From Patescibacteria group bacterium (GTDB lineage: Bacteria; Patescibacteriota; Doudnabacteria; UBA920): a stretch of DNA of 64,000 nucleotides. The stretch lies in contig WARV01000001.1 of assembly GCA_013387205.1 (NCBI GenBank), positions 86-64,085 on the forward strand, in the 5' to 3' direction. Below are positions 33,747 to 64,000 of the stretch, piece after piece. The notes under the pieces were generated by a model. It saw only the letters and a list, made by a program, of their open reading frames with translations, was not told where the DNA came from and did no database searches. Numbering within the stretch: the stretch's first letter is position 1; each line of letters starts with the position of its first letter. A program made the translations under genes and the position numbers.

Positions 33747-34020
33747 GAAACATAAAAGTTTTTTTGACGTTTTAATATACGATTTGACAGCTTTTTAAAA
33801 TAGGCGTATACCTAAGACATAATAAACTAAATAACCACTTATAACCTGTTAAATCGGGTTGCCCCAAATAAAGGGGGCTTGCGGATAAGTGATCAGACTA
33901 AAGGCCATTATTTGTGATACAATAAGAGCCTAGCCCTAAGTTTGGAAACAAAAATAGTGGCCAAAATTCTGTCTGTCACCATAAAGCCCGCAAGCTGAGT
34001 GGTTGGCAGGCAGTTTTTTT

Positions 34021-34890
34021 ATGAACAACGCGATTGTTACTTATTTGGAGTGGAAGGGGATAGCCCATGAGAGAGCATCTAAAGCCTATATAAAACCATT
34101 ACACAGGCTGGCTGAATATTTAAACAAAAAAGTTAGTGAACTTACTACGGATGATGTAAAAAAGTTCCTCAAATATTTAAAAGAGGAGCTTCCCAAGCTG
34201 TCTACAAGGGGGGATTGGCGCACAAACTTTTATTTCCATACGAATGTCATCCGTGATTTTATTAAACATTGGAATGATGAGGGGGTGTGTAATGTAAGGC
34301 CAGGAATTATCGAGGTTCCCAAGTACAGTTTCAACCCTTACCCATCGGTTACTATTGAAGAATTTGAGATGATGGATGATTATCTAGCCACCGAGCCAGA
34401 CAATTTTGCCAATCTTCAGAAACGGATGATTATACACTTTTTATGGTGGACGGGCGTTAGGGTATCAGAGCTTACCGATTTAAGATGGACTATTATTAAC
34501 CAATCCGAGCAGGGATTACCAATAAAAAATAAAAAGAACGGTGATATCAGATATATATTTTGGCCACCCCAAACCCACTTACTGCTTTTAAGATTTATCA
34601 GGGAAAGAAAACAGTTTACTGGGAATAGCCTATTAGTGACTTACCTGGGGAAAATGCACCCTCGCTGTGTCCAAAGGTTTTTAGAAAATTTAGGGAAAAA
34701 ACTGGGGATAACTTACCACCTATCACCACACTGTTTTCGTCAGGGTTGGGCAAAATATAGGTTGGAAAAGGGGGCGGATCTAAAACTAATAAAAGACGGA
34801 TTAGGCCACACTTCTTACGATTCTACGGACAGATACTTAATACTAAATTATAAACTGCAAAGGGAAAGAGCGGTGAAATATTTGACATAA
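34021..34890 (+). CDS. int: Tyrosine site-specific recombinase (phage integrase)
   Basis: Catalytic residues in context: TGVRVSEL (Arg), HCFRQGWA (His-x-x-Arg), LGHTSYDSTDRYL (His, Tyr). The track starts at 34003; ATG 34021 is preferred. Confidence 0.85.
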   Translation: MNNAIVTYLEWKGIAHERASKAYIKPLHRLAEYLNKKVSELTTDDVKKFLKYLKEELPKLSTRGDWRTNFYFHTNVIRDFIKHWNDEGVCNVRPGIIEVPKYSFNPYPSVTIEEFEMMDDYLATEPDNFANLQKRMIIHFLWWTGVRVSELTDLRWTIINQSEQGLPIKNKKNGDIRYIFWPPQTHLLLLRFIRERKQFTGNSLLVTYLGKMHPRCVQRFLENLGKKLGITYHLSPHCFRQGWAKYRLEKGADLKLIKDGLGHTSYDSTDRYLILNYKLQRERAVKYLT

Positions 34891-35820: not shown

Positions 35821-35932
35821 TTTTCCTCCTACTGGTAGATGAACGACAGATTAAGACTATCAAAATATGTATATGCTGTAAAGAAGCTTGTGCAAATAAA
35901 AAACTCCCCAGATGGGGAGTTTTTTATTTGAT

Positions 35933-38460: not shown

Positions 38461-38539
38461 TGCTATTATTATACCACAAATTGCTGTTTTTTCGTAGATA
38501 ATGCGCAAAATCAAAATAGTATGCGAATTATGCGAAAAA

Positions 38540-38562
38540 CCCCGCCTCTTAAAGAGGCGGGG
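38540..38562 (-). terminator. Intrinsic terminator hairpin CCCCGCCTCTT...AAGAGGCGGGG, copy 1 of a recurrent motif
   Basis: Immediately after the gltX stop, with a T-run on the minus strand. Confidence 0.6.
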
Positions 38563-38573
38563 TAAAATATTTA

Positions 38574-45291: not shown

Positions 45292-45320
45292 GAATACCTC
45301 AACCGTCGGTTGAGGTATTC
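45292..45320. repeat. 29-bp perfect palindrome GAATACCTCAACCG-T-CGGTTGAGGTATTC
   Basis: Exact reverse-complement arms of 14 bp. Checked base by base. Confidence 0.8.
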
Positions 45321-45347: not shown

Positions 45348-45387
45348 AATTCCCGGAAAACGAGCGATCGCTCGTTTTCCGGGAATT
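45348..45387. repeat. 40-bp perfect palindrome AATTCCCGGAAAACGAGCGA|TCGCTCGTTTTCCGGGAATT
   Basis: Exact 20+20 reverse complement. Checked base by base. Confidence 0.8.
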
Positions 45388-49480: not shown

Positions 49481-49665
49481 TTTACATCTCAACTTTTTGT
49501 TCCAAAAAATTTTAATAATTTTGGAAGTATAATAATTTTTATTTTAAATTTTTATATTGCAGATTAAACAATTGATTTTCTGGTTGCACTTGCGAAATTC
49601 GTATAAAACTTTACGCACCTGTGTAATCTGTGAACAATATAATTATACTACAAATATCGCAAAAC

Positions 49666-49706
49666 AAAAACCCGCTTCCGGACATGCCGGATTAGCGGGT
49701 TTTTTG
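49666..49706 (-). terminator. Intrinsic terminator (AACCCGCT...AGCGGGTT with flanking A/T runs), likely bidirectional
   Basis: 8-bp GC stem. T-run on both strands. Confidence 0.55.
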
Positions 49707-49868
49707 AAGTAGTCTCAAAACCTCATTTTGGCTGCAATCCCAGAATTTTAGCTGCAAACTTTTCATCGAAACTCACCGTAGCCTTAAGGCTACGCCATCG
49801 TTTCTCTTCAAAGTTTTCGCTTAAAAATTCTGGGATTTCGCCACAAAAGCACGTTTTGAGACTACTTC
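49706..49868. repeat. 163-bp nested imperfect palindrome. Outer arms of 16 bp, GAAGTAGTCTCAAAAC / GTTTTGAGACTACTTC. Inner arms AATCCCAGAATTTT / AAAATTCTGGGATT. Central hairpin CGTAGCCTTAAGGCTACG.
   Basis: Exact complementarity of the outer 16-bp arms and the inner 14-bp arms. Located immediately 3' of hup. Confidence 0.7.
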
Positions 49869-51695: not shown

Positions 51696-51729
51696 AACAA
51701 GGATGCCCCTTGCAAGGGGCATCCTTGTT
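51696..51729. repeat. 34-bp near-perfect palindrome AACAAGGATGCCCCTTGCAAGGGGCATCCTTGTT, ~30 nt upstream of the queA start
   Basis: Arms exactly complementary over 15 bp. Confidence 0.7.
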
Positions 51730-51754
51730 CTGTTTATAAAAACCTTGGATTAAA

Positions 51755-51782
51755 AAGGACACCCCGATGAATCGGGGTGTCC
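51755..51782 (-). terminator. Hairpin GGACACCCCGAT-gaa-TCGGGGTGTCC with a T-run on the minus strand (terminator of the small peptide gene)
   Basis: 12-bp perfect stem followed, on the minus strand, by TTTTTAATCC. Confidence 0.6.
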
Positions 51783-51795
51783 TTTGAGATTTTTT

Positions 51796-52979: not shown

Positions 52980-53513
52980 TTAATTAAATATTTCAGAGGA
53001 CAATTGTTTATAAATATTATAATCCCCACTGCTAAAACAGACAAAAATAATTTCAGTGATATTTGTCAAAGGGCGTGCTTTTATATATTCTTGGGTTGTC
53101 TCTAGGGCAATTGGCGCGGCTTCTTCTATAGGATAACCGTACGCGCCGGTTGAGATGGAAGGAAAAGCAATGCTTGTAATTTTATGCTTATCGGCAAGCT
53201 CCAGGCTATTTTTATAGCAATCTTCCAAATATGAAGCCGCGTAATCGCCCTGCTCTTTATATACCGGCCCGACAGTGTGGATGACAAACTTGGCAGGCAA
53301 ATTGTAACCCATGGTGATTTTTGCTTCGCCGGTTTTGCAGCCGCCTAAAGCCATACAGGACCTAAGCAGATCCGGCCCGGCAGCTTTGTGGATAGCTCCG
53401 TCTACTCCCCCGCCGCCCATAAGCTTGTTGTTAGCCGCATTTACTATCGCATCAACAGCAAGTTTGGTTATGTCGCCTTGGATAATTTTTATTTCTGTTT
53501 CATTTACTTTCAT
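52980..53513 (-). CDS. Macro-domain protein (O-acetyl-ADP-ribose deacetylase / YmdB-like)
   Basis: IIQGDITKLAVDAIVNAANNKLMGGGGVDGAIHKAAG and GxG motifs. Confidence 0.85.
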   Translation of the reverse strand: MKVNETEIKIIQGDITKLAVDAIVNAANNKLMGGGGVDGAIHKAAGPDLLRSCMALGGCKTGEAKITMGYNLPAKFVIHTVGPVYKEQGDYAASYLEDCYKNSLELADKHKITSIAFPSISTGAYGYPIEEAAPIALETTQEYIKARPLTNITEIIFVCFSSGDYNIYKQLSSEIFN

Positions 53514-54142
53514 GGAAAAATTTATTTATTGCCGGAATGATTTTGCTTCGGTCTTTAATTATTATTGCCGGTTTGCCTTTTTGCAGAATGGATTTTGGAT
53601 GAAAGCCGTCAATTACCGCCAAGGATTTTACCCTGCATTTTTCCGCCTCGATAATGTCACCTAAAGTATCAGTGATAAACAGGCAGTTTTTAGGACCAGC
53701 CTTGTATTTTTTTATAATCTTTCTTATTTTTTCTATTTTGCTGGTATGAGAGTCATATCCTAAAATATCATTAAAATATTTTATAACCTTATGCTTTTTA
53801 AGAAATTTCTTGATTGTTTTGTCTTTGGCGGACGAAATTATTGTTAAATGATATTTTGCGGCAAGTCTTCTTACTATTTCCGGCATGCCGGAAATTATTG
53901 GAAGTTCGTGCAGCCTTGGCTCATAAAGTTTCCAGTATTTTTTTTTGGTCTGCCATGCAAAATTTCGGAGTGAGCTTTAAAAATTCATAAATGTTCCCCA
54001 TAAACATTTTTTGGAACGTCTTTTTGCTTATTTTAAACCCTTGTATTTGCTCGTTGCATTGGTGGACGATTTTTGTCGAATCAACCAGGACTCCGTCAAA
54101 ATCAAACATCAGGATTTTATTGGACAAGGTTTTCTTTTTCAT
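53500..54142 (-). pseudogene. HAD-superfamily hydrolase split into two ORFs (53921..54142 N-terminal part, 53500..53886 C-terminal part) by a frameshift in an A9 homopolymer
   Basis: Motif I FDFDGVLVDS in the upstream ORF and motif IV ITDTLGDI in the downstream ORF. A T9 run on the + strand at 53938-53946. Removing one A fuses the two frames (...DQKKYWKLYEPRLHELPIISGMPEIVRRLAA...). Confidence 0.6.
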
Positions 54143-54150
54143 TTAACCGA

Positions 54151-55287
54151 TTATTCTCTTTTTAAATATTTTTTTCCTTTAATTTTTTCCGGTAAGTAGC
54201 TTTCTTTGTCGTATTTTTCGTAACCCGTGCCGTAGCCCAATTCGTCCATGAGTTTCGTAGGCGCGTTGCGGATCTTAAGCGGTATGGGCAGGTTGCCGAA
54301 TTTTTTTACGTCTTCAAGCGCTTTAAAATACGCATAGTACGCGCTTCTGTCTTTTTTACACAAGCAAAGATAGGTTACTCCGTGTGCCAGGTTAATTTGG
54401 CATTCGGGCAGGCCAATTGTTTCGCAGGCGCGGAAAACTTCGTTGGCTACCACTAAAGCCGTGGGCTGGGCCAGGCCGATGTCCTCGCTGGCAAAAATCA
54501 CCATCCTGCGGGCAATGAATTTCGGGTCCTCGCCCGAGTCTATCATTCTTGCCAGATAATACAGGGCAGCATCAGGCTGGCTGGCGCGCATGGATTTGAT
54601 GAACGCGGAAATGGTATTATAATGTTCCTCGCCCTGCTTGTCGTATCTTAAAAATTTTGACTGCAGCGTATCTTTTAGCGTTTCTACCGTAACTTTGCTG
54701 TAAAGTTTGATTGTGTTTTCAATCATGGTAATGGCTTGACGCGCGTCGCCGTTGGCCATATTGGCCAGCCACTCCTTGGCGTCTTTTTTCATCTTGATGC
54801 CGGTTTGTTGGATAATTTTTTCCATGTCCTGCGTCGGTAATTCGTTTAAAGTAAAAACCCGGCAGCGCGATAGCAGCGCCGGGATAACTTCAAAGGAAGG
54901 ATTTTCCGTGGTCGCGCCGATTAAGGTCAATCGGCCCGATTCCACGAAAGGCAGTAAAAAATCCTGCTGTGCTTTGTTAAAGCGGTGGATTTCATCCAAA
55001 AACAAAACTTTAGGCCGCAAAGTGGGCTGCCTATCCTCTACAATTTTCCTAATATCGTCTTTCCCCGCCGAAACCGCGGACAGTTCATACATCTCCGCAT
55101 TTAACGCATTAGCGTAAATCCTAGCCAGAGTGGTTTTGCCGACGCCTGGCGGCCCCCATAGTATAAAAGAGAACAGGTGTTTCTGTTCTATGGCAACCTT
55201 TAAGGGTTTGTATTCCCCTACCAAATGCCCCTGCCCCACAAAACTTTCCAGGTTTTTGGGTCGAATTTTATTAGCTAGCGGTTCCAT
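54151..55287 (-). CDS. rarA: Replication-associated recombination protein A (AAA+ ATPase)
   Basis: GPPGVGKTTLARIYA Walker A, LFLDEIHRFNKAQQD, and MgsA C-terminal region. Confidence 0.9.
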   Translation of the reverse strand: MEPLANKIRPKNLESFVGQGHLVGEYKPLKVAIEQKHLFSFILWGPPGVGKTTLARIYANALNAEMYELSAVSAGKDDIRKIVEDRQPTLRPKVLFLDEIHRFNKAQQDFLLPFVESGRLTLIGATTENPSFEVIPALLSRCRVFTLNELPTQDMEKIIQQTGIKMKKDAKEWLANMANGDARQAITMIENTIKLYSKVTVETLKDTLQSKFLRYDKQGEEHYNTISAFIKSMRASQPDAALYYLARMIDSGEDPKFIARRMVIFASEDIGLAQPTALVVANEVFRACETIGLPECQINLAHGVTYLCLCKKDRSAYYAYFKALEDVKKFGNLPIPLKIRNAPTKLMDELGYGTGYEKYDKESYLPEKIKGKKYLKRE

Positions 55288-55421
55288 ATGATAAGTGTAA
55301 CAAGCCCAAAATCCGCTGGCAAGATGAAAGTATGGATAGCTACTGTAATTTCTGCGTAGGTAGAAATTAATATTTTGATTATTATCAATGTTCTGGATCC
55401 CAGACTCTATCTGGGATGGAA

Positions 55422-55495
55422 CAAAATGAATGGCTCAACTTAACCCCGTCAAATTGTATTCTTATTTGACTGGGGCGGTTGAGCCATTCATTTTG
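55422..55495. repeat. 74-nt long hairpin. 18-bp perfect outer stem CAAAATGAATGGCTCAAC / GTTGAGCCATTCATTTTG plus an imperfect inner stem.
   Basis: Base-by-base check. Lies in the rarA/yeaD divergent intergenic region. Confidence 0.7.
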
Positions 55496-55506
55496 CCTAA
55501 TTTGGG

Positions 55507-55534
55507 CACTTCGATACATCGATGTATCGAAGTG
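55507..55534. repeat. 28-bp perfect palindrome CACTTCGATACATC|GATGTATCGAAGTG
   Basis: Exact 14+14 reverse complement, ~70 nt upstream of the yeaD-like start. Confidence 0.8.
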
Positions 55535-55607
55535 GGGCTGGCTTGACTTTAGGAGATAATAACCATAAAATGAGATGAAACTGTTGTACCCGAGAAAAGG
55601 AGGGATA

Positions 55608-56468
55608 ATGATAGAGTATGGACTAGGAAATGGCGGATTGAAGCATTTGCTGATAAATAGCAAGTCGGCAACAGCTGAAATTTATTGCCAAGGAGCCCAC
55701 CTTATCCGCTGGCAGCCAAAGAGCTGTCCGCATCCGGTTTTTTGGATTAGCAAGAAGAGTTTGTTTGAACCAGGGAAGCCTATTCGCGGCGGCAGTCCAA
55801 TTTGTTTTCCCAAAGTCGGGCTAGCCCAGGGCAATGCCAAGTATCCCATGCACGGGCCTGTGAGGTTTGAAGAGTGGAATTCGGTACCCCCTGCCCCGCA
55901 GAATGACGACACGGTCCAAGTCGGCTTTAAGCTGGCAAGTAACCAGCGCACTCTTGCTGTCTGGTCGCACAAGTTTGAGCTGGAGACGTGTTTTGTCATC
56001 AATCCCGAGCTTAAACGCGTTGTTACCATCCGAAATACGGGCGACGCGCCGTTTTCTTGCGAAATTCTTCTTCACGACTATTTCGCGATTGGCAATCTCA
56101 GGAGAGCGCGAATTTTCGGGCTGAAAGACTCTTTGTATTTCAACAAGCCGACTGGAGAAATCTTCAGTGAGGGAAACGAGTGGGTTTCAATTGCCGGTGA
56201 GACCGACCGGGTTTACTCAAGCGATGGTCCGGTGATTTTGGATGACCCTGGTTTTCGGCGGAGAATCAACATCGAAAAAACCAACTCTAAGTCAACAGCA
56301 GTCTGGAACCCATGGGTCGAGAAGTCCAAAGCCATGCCTGATTTCGGCGACGATGAATACCTGGAAATGATTTGCGTTGAGTCCGGCAACGCCCTTAATG
56401 GCGCAATAACCGTGGAACCCGGCAAGGAGTTTACCATGAGTGTTGTTGTCAGGGTCGAGATGTACTGA
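55608..56468 (+). CDS. D-hexose-6-phosphate mutarotase (glucose-6-phosphate 1-epimerase, YeaD-like aldose-epimerase family)
   Basis: Motifs including GGSPICFP, HGPVRFEEW and the HDYFA region. Start at ATG 55608 with an AAGGAGGG SD. Track start 55575. Confidence 0.7.
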   Translation: MIEYGLGNGGLKHLLINSKSATAEIYCQGAHLIRWQPKSCPHPVFWISKKSLFEPGKPIRGGSPICFPKVGLAQGNAKYPMHGPVRFEEWNSVPPAPQNDDTVQVGFKLASNQRTLAVWSHKFELETCFVINPELKRVVTIRNTGDAPFSCEILLHDYFAIGNLRRARIFGLKDSLYFNKPTGEIFSEGNEWVSIAGETDRVYSSDGPVILDDPGFRRRINIEKTNSKSTAVWNPWVEKSKAMPDFGDDEYLEMICVESGNALNGAITVEPGKEFTMSVVVRVEMY

Positions 56469-56538
56469 GGCGCAAAATGCGCGCTACAAAACACCTCAGG
56501 CGGCAGTAATGTTGCTTGAGGTGTTTTTTATTGCTAAA

Positions 56539-63408: not shown

Positions 63409-63495
63409 CTTGTTATTTCCTCCTTTAAGATGTTTTGTGTTGCATTATATTATACGACGAATTGGCCTTTTAATATTAACTAGCTATTTAAAAAA

Positions 63496-63518
63496 CCCCG
63501 CCTCTTAAAAAGGCGGGG
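63496..63518 (-). terminator. Intrinsic terminator hairpin CCCCGCCT-cttaaaaa-AGGCGGGG, copy 2 of the recurrent motif
   Basis: Near-identical to the 38540-38562 hairpin. T-run on the minus strand after the 63530..63907 gene. Confidence 0.6.
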
Positions 63519-63529
63519 TTGTTGTGCCG

Positions 63530-63907: not shown

Positions 63908-64000
63908 TTATATTTTTAGGGTTGGTTAAATATTTAACAAGCAGGCCGGAAAACATTTTCCGGCCTGCTTTAAAATGGCAAACCGGTTATTCCTGCTTTT

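Follow-up and report, generated by a model that had tools for sequence, protein, structure and literature searches.

Between two divergently transcribed genes, rarA and a yeaD-like hexose-6-phosphate mutarotase gene, in a 64,000-nucleotide stretch of a Patescibacteria contig (WARV01000001.1; this whole stretch is called the window below), lies a perfect 28-bp palindrome, here named pal3 (55507-55534). Sequence comparisons indicate that pal3 is most likely a predicted operator-type site of a YerC/YecD regulator, HisR-like and of the TrpR family, encoded outside the window. We put the probability that the palindrome acts as a duplex operator at roughly 0.5 to 0.55, and we regard a link between the palindrome and a YerC-like protein as quite probable; the presence of a YerC-like gene in this organism is assumed. 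The same intergenic region holds a small hairpin (hp1) and a 74-nt hairpin (hp2), both of which are probably ordinary structures that resemble terminators. We therefore discuss them separately, and lean towards the view that the rarA/yeaD region combines elements of two unrelated kinds and is not one element.

A palindrome family around YerC/YecD-type genes

The palindrome reads CACTTCGATACATCGATGTATCGAAGTG (CACTTCGATACATC|GATGTATCGAAGTG; inverted-repeat scan), and its motif core, ACTTCGATACA-TCGA-TGTATCGAAGT, occupies 55508-55533. A 20-nt inner core, TCGATACATCGATGTATCGA, was found in eight JGI/ENA metagenome contigs, two of which are low-complexity chance matches. The full 26-nt core, ACTTCGATACATCGATGTATCGAAGT, is common to the window, to one site (copy B) of a locus from Hainich groundwater, L034, and to a further locus, L036, where a solitary copy adjoins murD; the flanks of these sites are unrelated. 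In L034 the palindrome follows a gene for a 139-aa protein, and a second copy, ACTTTGATACATCGATGTATCAAAGT, precedes the same gene. The encoded protein belongs to the Trp_repressor family (PF01371 at E 1e-13), scores 53 bits against TIGR02531 YerC/YecD (cutoff 42.2) and has sequence matches in the PDB to 3KOR, 3FRW and 3G1C.

Three more loci were chosen via homology to the L034 protein, without reference to the motif. The protein of L040 is 64% identical to that of L034, with ACTTTAATACATCGCTGTATTAAAGT as the upstream site A and CACTTTAATACAGCGATGTATTAAAGTG as the downstream site B; that of L041 is 66% identical (A, TATACTTCAGTACATCGCTGTACTGAAGTATA; B, CACTTCAGTACATCGCTGTACTGAAGTG); and that of L042, from Sungiibacteriota and with different neighbours, is 49% identical (A, ACTCCAATACATCGATGTATTAGAGT; B, ACTTCGATACAGCGATGTATTGGAGT). 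Two copies of the motif thus bracket a YerC/YecD gene (TrpR-family, HisR-like) in all four independent loci of Patescibacteria (the candidate phyla radiation, CPR), with site A 9-27 nt upstream of the regulator's ATG and site B 10-18 nt downstream of its stop. Since the neighbouring genes of L042 are different, the sites travel with the regulator gene.

The conserved motif that includes pal3 is ACTYYRRTACA-KCGM-TGTAYYRRAGT, in which the bases at 16 positions are specified. When the pattern ACTNNNNTACANCGNTGTANNNNAGT was run against 45 loci with at most two mismatches, the matches were confined to L001 (an independent Logan assembly of the window's own sequence), L036, and a pair of sites at each YerC-like locus. 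The matches around the YerC-like genes were exact, at a chance expectation that we calculate as ~1e-5, and in the window the pattern has a single match, pal3, even at three mismatches. The variable triplets (TGA, CGA, TAA, CAG, CAA) differ among genomes by symmetric changes, and in three of the four loci they are equal in copies A and B or equal in one half-site. Such symmetric co-variation is expected if a homodimer and its sites co-evolve. The sequence-only reading had offered operators for a dimeric regulator as one explanation of all three structures; the motif copies flanking the regulator gene in four CPR loci and the symmetric half-sites lend this support for pal3 only.

On these comparisons the palindrome is conserved with the regulator and not with yeaD. 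The expectation that it would recur upstream of yeaD orthologs failed: the homologs are at most 45% identical and come from other phyla with other neighbours, and their upstream regions, which differ in synteny, hold no related palindrome. In viral contigs, searches for the motif and the YerC-like protein gave chance or non-palindromic matches and one unrelated phage terminator-like palindrome, with no relatives of the protein. Literature searches returned no description of the CPR motif; only a paper on HisR (PMC9413887) was relevant.

An arrangement of ruvA, YerC-like regulator and FemAB-family gene is conserved in three of the CPR genomes (L034, L040 and L041), and site B in these lies only 11-21 nt ahead of the femAB-like start codon. 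This gene order, together with the sites beside murD (L036) and a sortase gene (L037), hints at a cell-envelope regulon. Three other loci carry the inner core TCGATACATCGATGTATCGA without the outer ACT...AGT ends (L033 1259-1278, L037 11497-11516 and L039 1091-1110), and these may be variant sites, perhaps for a related protein.

Relation to HisR, TrpR and REP systems

The YerC protein of B. subtilis is HisR, a histidine repressor of the TrpR family (PMC9413887). HisR occurs in Firmicutes, Actinobacteria and Synergistetes, its lineage-specific motifs share a 20-bp palindrome, cacTTTAnnnnnnTAAAgtg (that is, cacTTTA-N6-TAAAgtg), and about half of the genomes studied have a site ahead of hisR itself; binding in vitro has been validated for HisR of R. 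gnavus (PMC9413887). The CPR protein is a distant relative of HisR, from the same family (PF01371 / TIGR02531 YerC-YecD) and likewise associated with palindromic sites. The outer half-sites of HisR are found nearly identical in CPR, as CACTTTA...TAAAGTG in site B of L040 and as CACTTCG...CGAAGTG in the window. As with HisR, a site stands ahead of the regulator's own gene, implying autoregulation, and the consensus drifts between lineages. In contrast to HisR, the CPR half-sites are spaced by N14 and not N6, 8 bp more, which makes a site of 26-28 bp against 20 bp, and they enclose an extra conserved inner palindrome, TACA-NCGN-TGTA. A second motif copy always follows the CPR regulator gene. The CPR proteins are ~139 aa long and end in a conserved C-terminal PPxxGKGRW tail, whereas HisR has fewer than 100 aa, and the CPR neighbours and predicted targets are not histidine genes: they are ruvA, a femAB-like gene and yeaD, with further sites beside murD and a sortase gene. 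We treat the N14-spaced CPR site as a variant of the HisR motif, not as the same motif.

In E. coli TrpR operators, CTAG units lie 8 bp apart and dimers bind in tandem. TrpR belongs to the same protein family as the CPR regulator and also has a palindromic site, and pal3 contains TCGA three times with an 8-bp period (CACT TCGA TACA TCGA TGTA TCGA AGTG). The 8 bp by which pal3 exceeds the HisR sites equal the step of tandem TrpR binding, and by this analogy we would suggest tandem binding of dimers at the CPR sites. The sequences themselves differ, TGTAcTnGTnnACnAgTACA for TrpR against that of pal3, and the 8-bp period is lost in the L041 sites. The TrpR half-site has been given as GNACT with an 8-bp spacer (PMC9413887).

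The family also recalls repetitive extragenic palindromes (REPs) and their REP-associated tyrosine transposases (RAYTs), in that a gene is bracketed by short palindrome copies while more copies are scattered between genes, often after stop codons. Unlike in REP/RAYT systems, the bracketed CPR gene encodes a 139-aa helix-turn-helix protein and not an HUH (Y1) transposase, the copy density is low, one in 64 kb here where REPs number hundreds in a genome, and each CPR site is a full palindrome, not an inverted pair of imperfect REPs.

A predicted operator upstream of yeaD

Domain and homology searches confirmed that the region is flanked by divergent genes for RarA and a hexose-6-phosphate mutarotase. 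The rarA gene (54151-55287, minus strand) encodes an MgsA-type AAA+ ATPase with MgsA_C and AAA domains. The likely true start of the yeaD-like gene (Aldose_epim domain; 55608-56468, plus strand) is revised to the ATG at 55608, which is preceded by an AAGGAGG ribosome-binding site; the 286-aa product starting there is the form found on record. With this start the rarA-yeaD intergenic region measures ~320 bp. A promoter scan gave a promoter-like site for each gene, TTGACT-17-TAAAAT for yeaD (55543-55571, plus strand, 10/12 matches) and TTGCCA-17-(TG)TACACT for rarA (55294-55322, minus strand, 9/12 matches). The two predicted promoters flank the hairpins and are directed outward. That of rarA finishes immediately upstream of the ATG at 55287, and that of yeaD starts 8 bp past the end of pal3 and finishes 36 nt ahead of its ATG. 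No LexA/SOS box (GAAC-N4-GTTC) was seen ahead of rarA on inspection of the sequence. The small open reading frames (ORFs) in the rarA-yeaD spacer include none with a ribosome-binding site or a family match, and one of 92 aa has no Pfam match.

We propose that pal3 is a sequence-specific protein-binding site, one of a small family of sites for the YerC/YecD-type helix-turn-helix protein of Patescibacteria. This protein would bind as one or more dimers and control its own gene and a few other targets, one of which would be reached here through the site ending 8 bp upstream of the yeaD -35 box. A protein bound at pal3 would then alter the transcription of yeaD, in the simplest case by repressing it or by standing in the way of passing polymerases, and could affect rarA too, 220 bp away. 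The order of terminator, palindrome, -35-like box, ribosome-binding site and ATG is the same in L033 as in the window.

A number of observations weigh against the operator reading. A tblastn search found no YerC-like gene in the 64-kb window. The palindrome does not overlap the predicted -35 and -10 boxes, the spacing between palindrome and -35 box is not the same as in L033 (a difference of ~6 bp), and the scan calls no promoter at the TATACT box of the A sites. A compact TrpR-type dimer would not reach across half-sites 21 bp apart. The L036 site lies between converging genes, without a promoter to regulate, and several family members stand directly after stop codons. Palindromy often continues 2-6 bp past the conserved motif into non-conserved sequence, the two mismatches of L042 B would be G-U pairs in the mRNA strand, and a simple scan scores the B sites of two loci, L034 and L040, as terminator-like on the minus strand; these last three features favour a function at the level of a hairpin, in RNA or single-stranded DNA.

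Such a function is the substance of an alternative that we consider unlikely, in which the palindrome family works not as a duplex operator but as a folded hairpin, either an RNA 3'-end stem-loop or a structure in single-stranded or cruciform DNA. The YerC-like protein may or may not recognise this hairpin, which would be a REP-like or terminator-like element placed after genes, and pal3 would be a stranded copy beside another terminator. Most family members do lie 8-34 nt past the stop codon of a gene, which is ruvA or an acetyltransferase gene for the A sites, the YerC-like gene for the B sites and murD for the L036 site, and the L037 site lies 86 nt past the sortase gene; however, the intergenic regions of CPR leave so little room that an operator of any kind has to fall near the preceding stop codon. 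The extra palindromy differs from site to site (reaching 38 nt in L041 A, 36 nt in L040 B and L041 B, and 34 nt in L036), and a terminator-like hairpin stands 8-14 nt away from the palindrome in the window as well as in L033 and L036. Yet ordinary terminators are not conserved in sequence between genomes whose proteins are only 49-66% identical, and no site has a coding-strand T-run after the palindrome. While the mismatches of L042 B fit G-U pairs on the coding strand, L042 A carries a C-A mismatch there. Like operator spacers, the centre retains CG without always being symmetric (TCGC, GCGA), and the outer half-sites agree with the duplex motif for which binding of the homologous HisR has been shown by experiment (PMC9413887). 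We think it quite unlikely that the YerC-like protein and the palindrome form an unrecognised CPR system in which the motif acts as a hairpin, be it a RAYT/REP-like self-associated element or a device for protein-dependent termination or roadblock. In the roadblock version, a TrpR-fold protein on palindromes after stop codons would determine where transcription units end in genomes whose intergenic regions are very short.

Geometry and chance expectation of the three structures

All three structures are real and far beyond chance. The small hairpin hp1 (element 55390-55422; inverted-repeat scan and fold) has an 8-bp stem, ATCCCAGA/TCTGGGAT, at 55397-55404/55410-55417 and a 5-nt loop; it had been noticed from the letters as a 7-bp hairpin ending at 55419, so that its presence stands while stem length and end are corrected to 8 bp and 55417. 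In the predicted fold its stem is lengthened by outer GUUC/GAAC pairs. It is present as a single copy, with none besides it in the window, in 185,579 species genomes or in IMG/VR, and no T-run follows the stem. The long hairpin hp2 (55422-55495; inverted-repeat scan and fold) and its perfect 18-bp stem were found as first described, and the perfect 28-bp palindrome was likewise confirmed. The 18-nt arms of hp2, CAAAATGAATGGCTCAAC/GTTGAGCCATTCATTTTG, lie at 55422-55439/55478-55495 and form a perfect lower stem of 18 bp, which can be written CAAAATGAAT|GGCTCAAC. Above it follow an internal loop (ttaa/cg), an 11-bp upper stem with one bulged T (55444-55454/55464-55474) and a 9-nt loop.

As RNA, 55390-55545 folds at -77.9 kcal/mol on the plus strand (z -9.75) and at -74.5 kcal/mol on the minus strand (z -12.6), and 0 of 200 shuffles reach the stability of the native fold. 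By our own arithmetic, an 18-bp perfect inverted repeat within 150 nt is expected ~1e-4 times per 64 kb and a 28-bp perfect palindrome ~2e-4 times. The independent Logan assembly (SRR19769811, L001) is identical over pal3 and the right half of hp2, which makes an assembly artefact unlikely for these parts; hp1 and the left arm of hp2 lie outside that contig. Perfect hairpins are nevertheless frequent in the half of the window from 35 to 64 kb, where stems of 10 bp or more occur at ~15 loci (in shuffles at ~1), almost all of them at gene 3' ends as read from the ORF map. The outer arms of the other perfect hairpins in the window are rich in A and T. An excess over chance alone does not, then, make the region special. 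Its unusual trait is its location between two gene starts.

Two hairpins resembling terminators

The anatomy of hp2 is CAAAATGAAT | GGCTCAAC ... GTTGAGCC | ATTCATTTTG, an A-rich arm, a GC core and a T-rich arm. The layout reads alike on both strands, with the core GGCTCAAC...GTTGAGCC followed by ATTCATTTTG on each. This is the layout of bidirectional intrinsic terminators, and hp2 shares it with the window hairpins at 35892-35930, 51753-51785 and 56485-56530. In contrast to such terminators, its stem is unusually long and interrupted (74 nt with a 9-nt loop), and it is located between two gene starts. The initial judgement that these were not simple terminators thus holds for the position, while the anatomy of hp2 speaks otherwise. 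We conclude that hp2, and with less support hp1, are probably terminator-type structures orphaned by rearrangement. They would be terminators stranded at the yeaD/rarA junction, either inherited from an old upstream gene or brought in with the yeaD segment, and they may now insulate the rarA and yeaD promoters from read-through and antisense transcription.

Some points count against a terminator origin. No gene ends at hp1 or hp2, and both flanking genes point away, which leaves read-through from the esterase gene, antisense transcripts and a lost upstream gene as the sole candidates for termination there. The T-tract of hp2, ATTCATTTTG, is weak and hp1 has none. A terminator consensus scan calls neither hairpin, in the case of hp2 because of its 9-nt loop and interrupted stem.

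Three other origins have to be weighed. The sequence-only reading had also raised a small structured RNA, and hp1-hp2 (55390-55495) might encode a small non-coding RNA or act in cis as a leader of rarA or yeaD. In favour are a very stable fold of both strands (z -9.8 and -12.6), a non-coding position between two gene starts and the presence in the window of another long rod-like hairpin at 49706-49868; yet equal stability on both strands is a property of a DNA palindrome, not of an oriented RNA gene. A search of the whole window gave no Rfam match at gathering score, and a permissive search of the region gave as its best match 25.3 bits, against a threshold of 53.1, to a generic hairpin model of the miRNA type. 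The sub-threshold matches are to generic hairpin models. No tRNA or tmRNA was found, neither strand has a promoter-like site ahead of the hairpins (the two predicted promoters lie beyond them and point away), and nothing searched contained a homolog, hence there is no covariation to support the structure. Within 55288-55506, nothing similar was seen among the other loci compared. The RNA option therefore went unsupported for hp1-hp2, and we judge it improbable.

That hp2 is a miniature mobile or repeated palindromic element inserted between the genes, akin to miniature inverted-repeat transposable elements (MITEs), REPs or bacterial interspersed mosaic elements (BIMEs), is very unlikely in our view. 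As such an element would, it forms a long non-coding hairpin with perfect 18-nt terminal inverted repeats and adjoins a probably horizontally acquired gene, and the independent Logan contig breaks within its loop. But no second copy exists in the 64 kb: the 18-nt arm has no match in the window beyond the two arms of hp2 themselves, even with three mismatches. In 185,579 species genomes (GTDB representatives) it has 20 single-arm matches, and in IMG/VR two. With ~17 matches expected by chance and flanks at background identity, these are chance hits, and the earlier idea of an inserted palindromic element is not supported, there being no other copies in these three sets. There is no target-site duplication around the arms, and no transposase gene among the ORFs annotated around hp2. 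Least credible of all is a recombination origin, with pal3 as an 11-6-11 dif- or lox-like site of a tyrosine recombinase and hp2 as an attC-like folded site. The GCTCAAC/GTTGAGC of hp2 fits RYYYAAC/GTTRRRY, there are an unpaired spacer and one bulged base, and the window encodes an Xer-like tyrosine recombinase (34003-34890) near a switch of strand and AT skew at about 35.9 kb. That gene, however, is 20 kb away and scores 41.8 bits against an integron-integrase cutoff of 265 bits, far below the Xer cutoff as well. pal3 is perfectly symmetric, centre included, and so directionless, and its family co-occurs with a helix-turn-helix regulator gene, not a recombinase. In hp2, 11 bp pair beyond the supposed R boxes, the core being internal to the stem, the hairpin stands alone without a cassette array, and we estimate that a RYYYAAC match in an arm arises in ~2% of cases by chance. 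Known attC sites are longer than hp2. Readings of the dif, lox and attC types were rejected on context.

Origin of yeaD and history of the locus

The best homologs of yeaD are at most 45% identical and come from the Planctomycetes-Verrucomicrobia-Chlamydiae (PVC) group, in metagenome-assembled genomes (MAGs) of Verrucomicrobia and Phycisphaerae; the nearest are not from CPR. Among 18 genes from this half of the window whose GC content was measured, yeaD ranks first with 0.503, its neighbours being at ~0.42. In a relative, L029 (GCA_964532425.1), genes for an LPG-synthase and an esterase, three small genes and rarA are followed further on by queA, all on one strand. Compared with L029, the window has an inverted mutarotase gene and the hairpin region in place of the three small genes, which points to yeaD as a lineage-specific insertion with the hairpins at the rarA junction. 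We consider yeaD, from these comparisons, to be probably a horizontally acquired, lineage-specific insertion at a break in gene order. At 110-155 nt upstream of rarA, which is also the distance of the hairpins in the window, L029 has a canonical terminator, GCATGTATC...GATACATGC with TTTTTTATT after it. The region upstream of rarA is too diverged from that of L029 to align, and only coding regions do (rarA 75%). At the other end, where yeaD and the esterase gene converge, a bidirectional terminator-like hairpin (56485-56530; hairpin scan and gene map) between their 3' ends marks the right edge of the yeaD segment.

A long hairpin is also found in the divergent region upstream of a yeaD homolog in a PVC-group genome (L027 3816-3885, L028 3173-3242). 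It is 70 nt long, with 23-nt arms that are 96% complementary and a 24-nt loop, GC-rich and unrelated in sequence to hp2, and is probably a repeat of that genome.

RarA is ~77-83% identical over a very wide range of Patescibacteria, whereas other syntenic proteins shared with L029 are only 42-65% identical; judged by these identities, its conservation is unusually strong for the lineage. The identity of ~80% to RarA of many Patescibacteria and Paceibacterota MAGs places the organism in Patescibacteria. An ORF of the HAD family of hydrolases (53500-53886) matches the domain only over its C-terminal part (profile positions 86-178) and may be a split or decayed gene. A 10+10 palindrome at 53875-53895 overlaps its start.

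Other features of the window

The rod-like imperfect hairpin at 49706-49868 is 163 nt long and folds at -81.4 kcal/mol on the minus strand (z -12.4). It lies directly downstream of an HU/IHF-like gene (~50150-49885, minus strand; from reading the sequence, with no family search), is followed by a classic terminator at ~49664-49705, and could be a non-coding RNA or a 3' untranslated structure. 6S RNA was rejected as its identity, there being no Rfam match of any kind, 6S included.

In the first part of the window (1-35900), all large ORFs but one are on the plus strand and most have no Pfam match. Among the products encoded in this block are glycosyltransferases, a collagen-repeat protein and a dGTP diphosphohydrolase-like protein, and it ends with the 295-aa Xer-like tyrosine recombinase (34003-34890), close to the switch of strand and AT skew at ~35.9 kb. 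The block may represent a genomic island or a replication terminus. The window is unusually rich in perfect palindromes of 29-40 bp with spacers of 0-2 nt, none of them in the first 35 kb. They lie at 45348-45387, 51696-51729, 51754-51785, 35893-35930, 63939-63970 and 45292-45320, at gene 3' ends where they can be placed on the ORF map. Their abundance suggests strong selection for long terminators or a palindrome-perfecting process in the genome. Two terminator-like hairpins, at 38538-38563 and 63493-63520, have nearly the same sequence (AACCCCGCCTCTTAA..GGCGGGGTT) and may be a small repeat family.

Implications

Patescibacteria are uncultivated bacteria with reduced genomes and few transcription factors, and little is known of their gene regulation. 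What is new here is a predicted spacing variant of the TrpR/HisR-type operator, which on the sequences compared would define a regulator-motif pair for CPR. A conserved cis-element tied to a specific small regulator makes a testable pair, and a motif with 16 specified positions can be scanned for across CPR to define the regulon. The first hints of that regulon are cell-envelope genes (the femAB-like gene, and sites beside murD and beside a sortase gene) together with the recently acquired sugar-phosphate gene yeaD. The two hairpins illustrate how rearrangement can strand terminator-like structures between divergent genes. If the operator reading is true, a horizontally acquired gene sits under the site of a native regulator. 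For the family as a whole, the CPR sites suggest that a TrpR/HisR-type recognition code, the cACTTyr half-sites, was kept while the spacing between them grew by 8 bp, which bears on how these proteins bind DNA.

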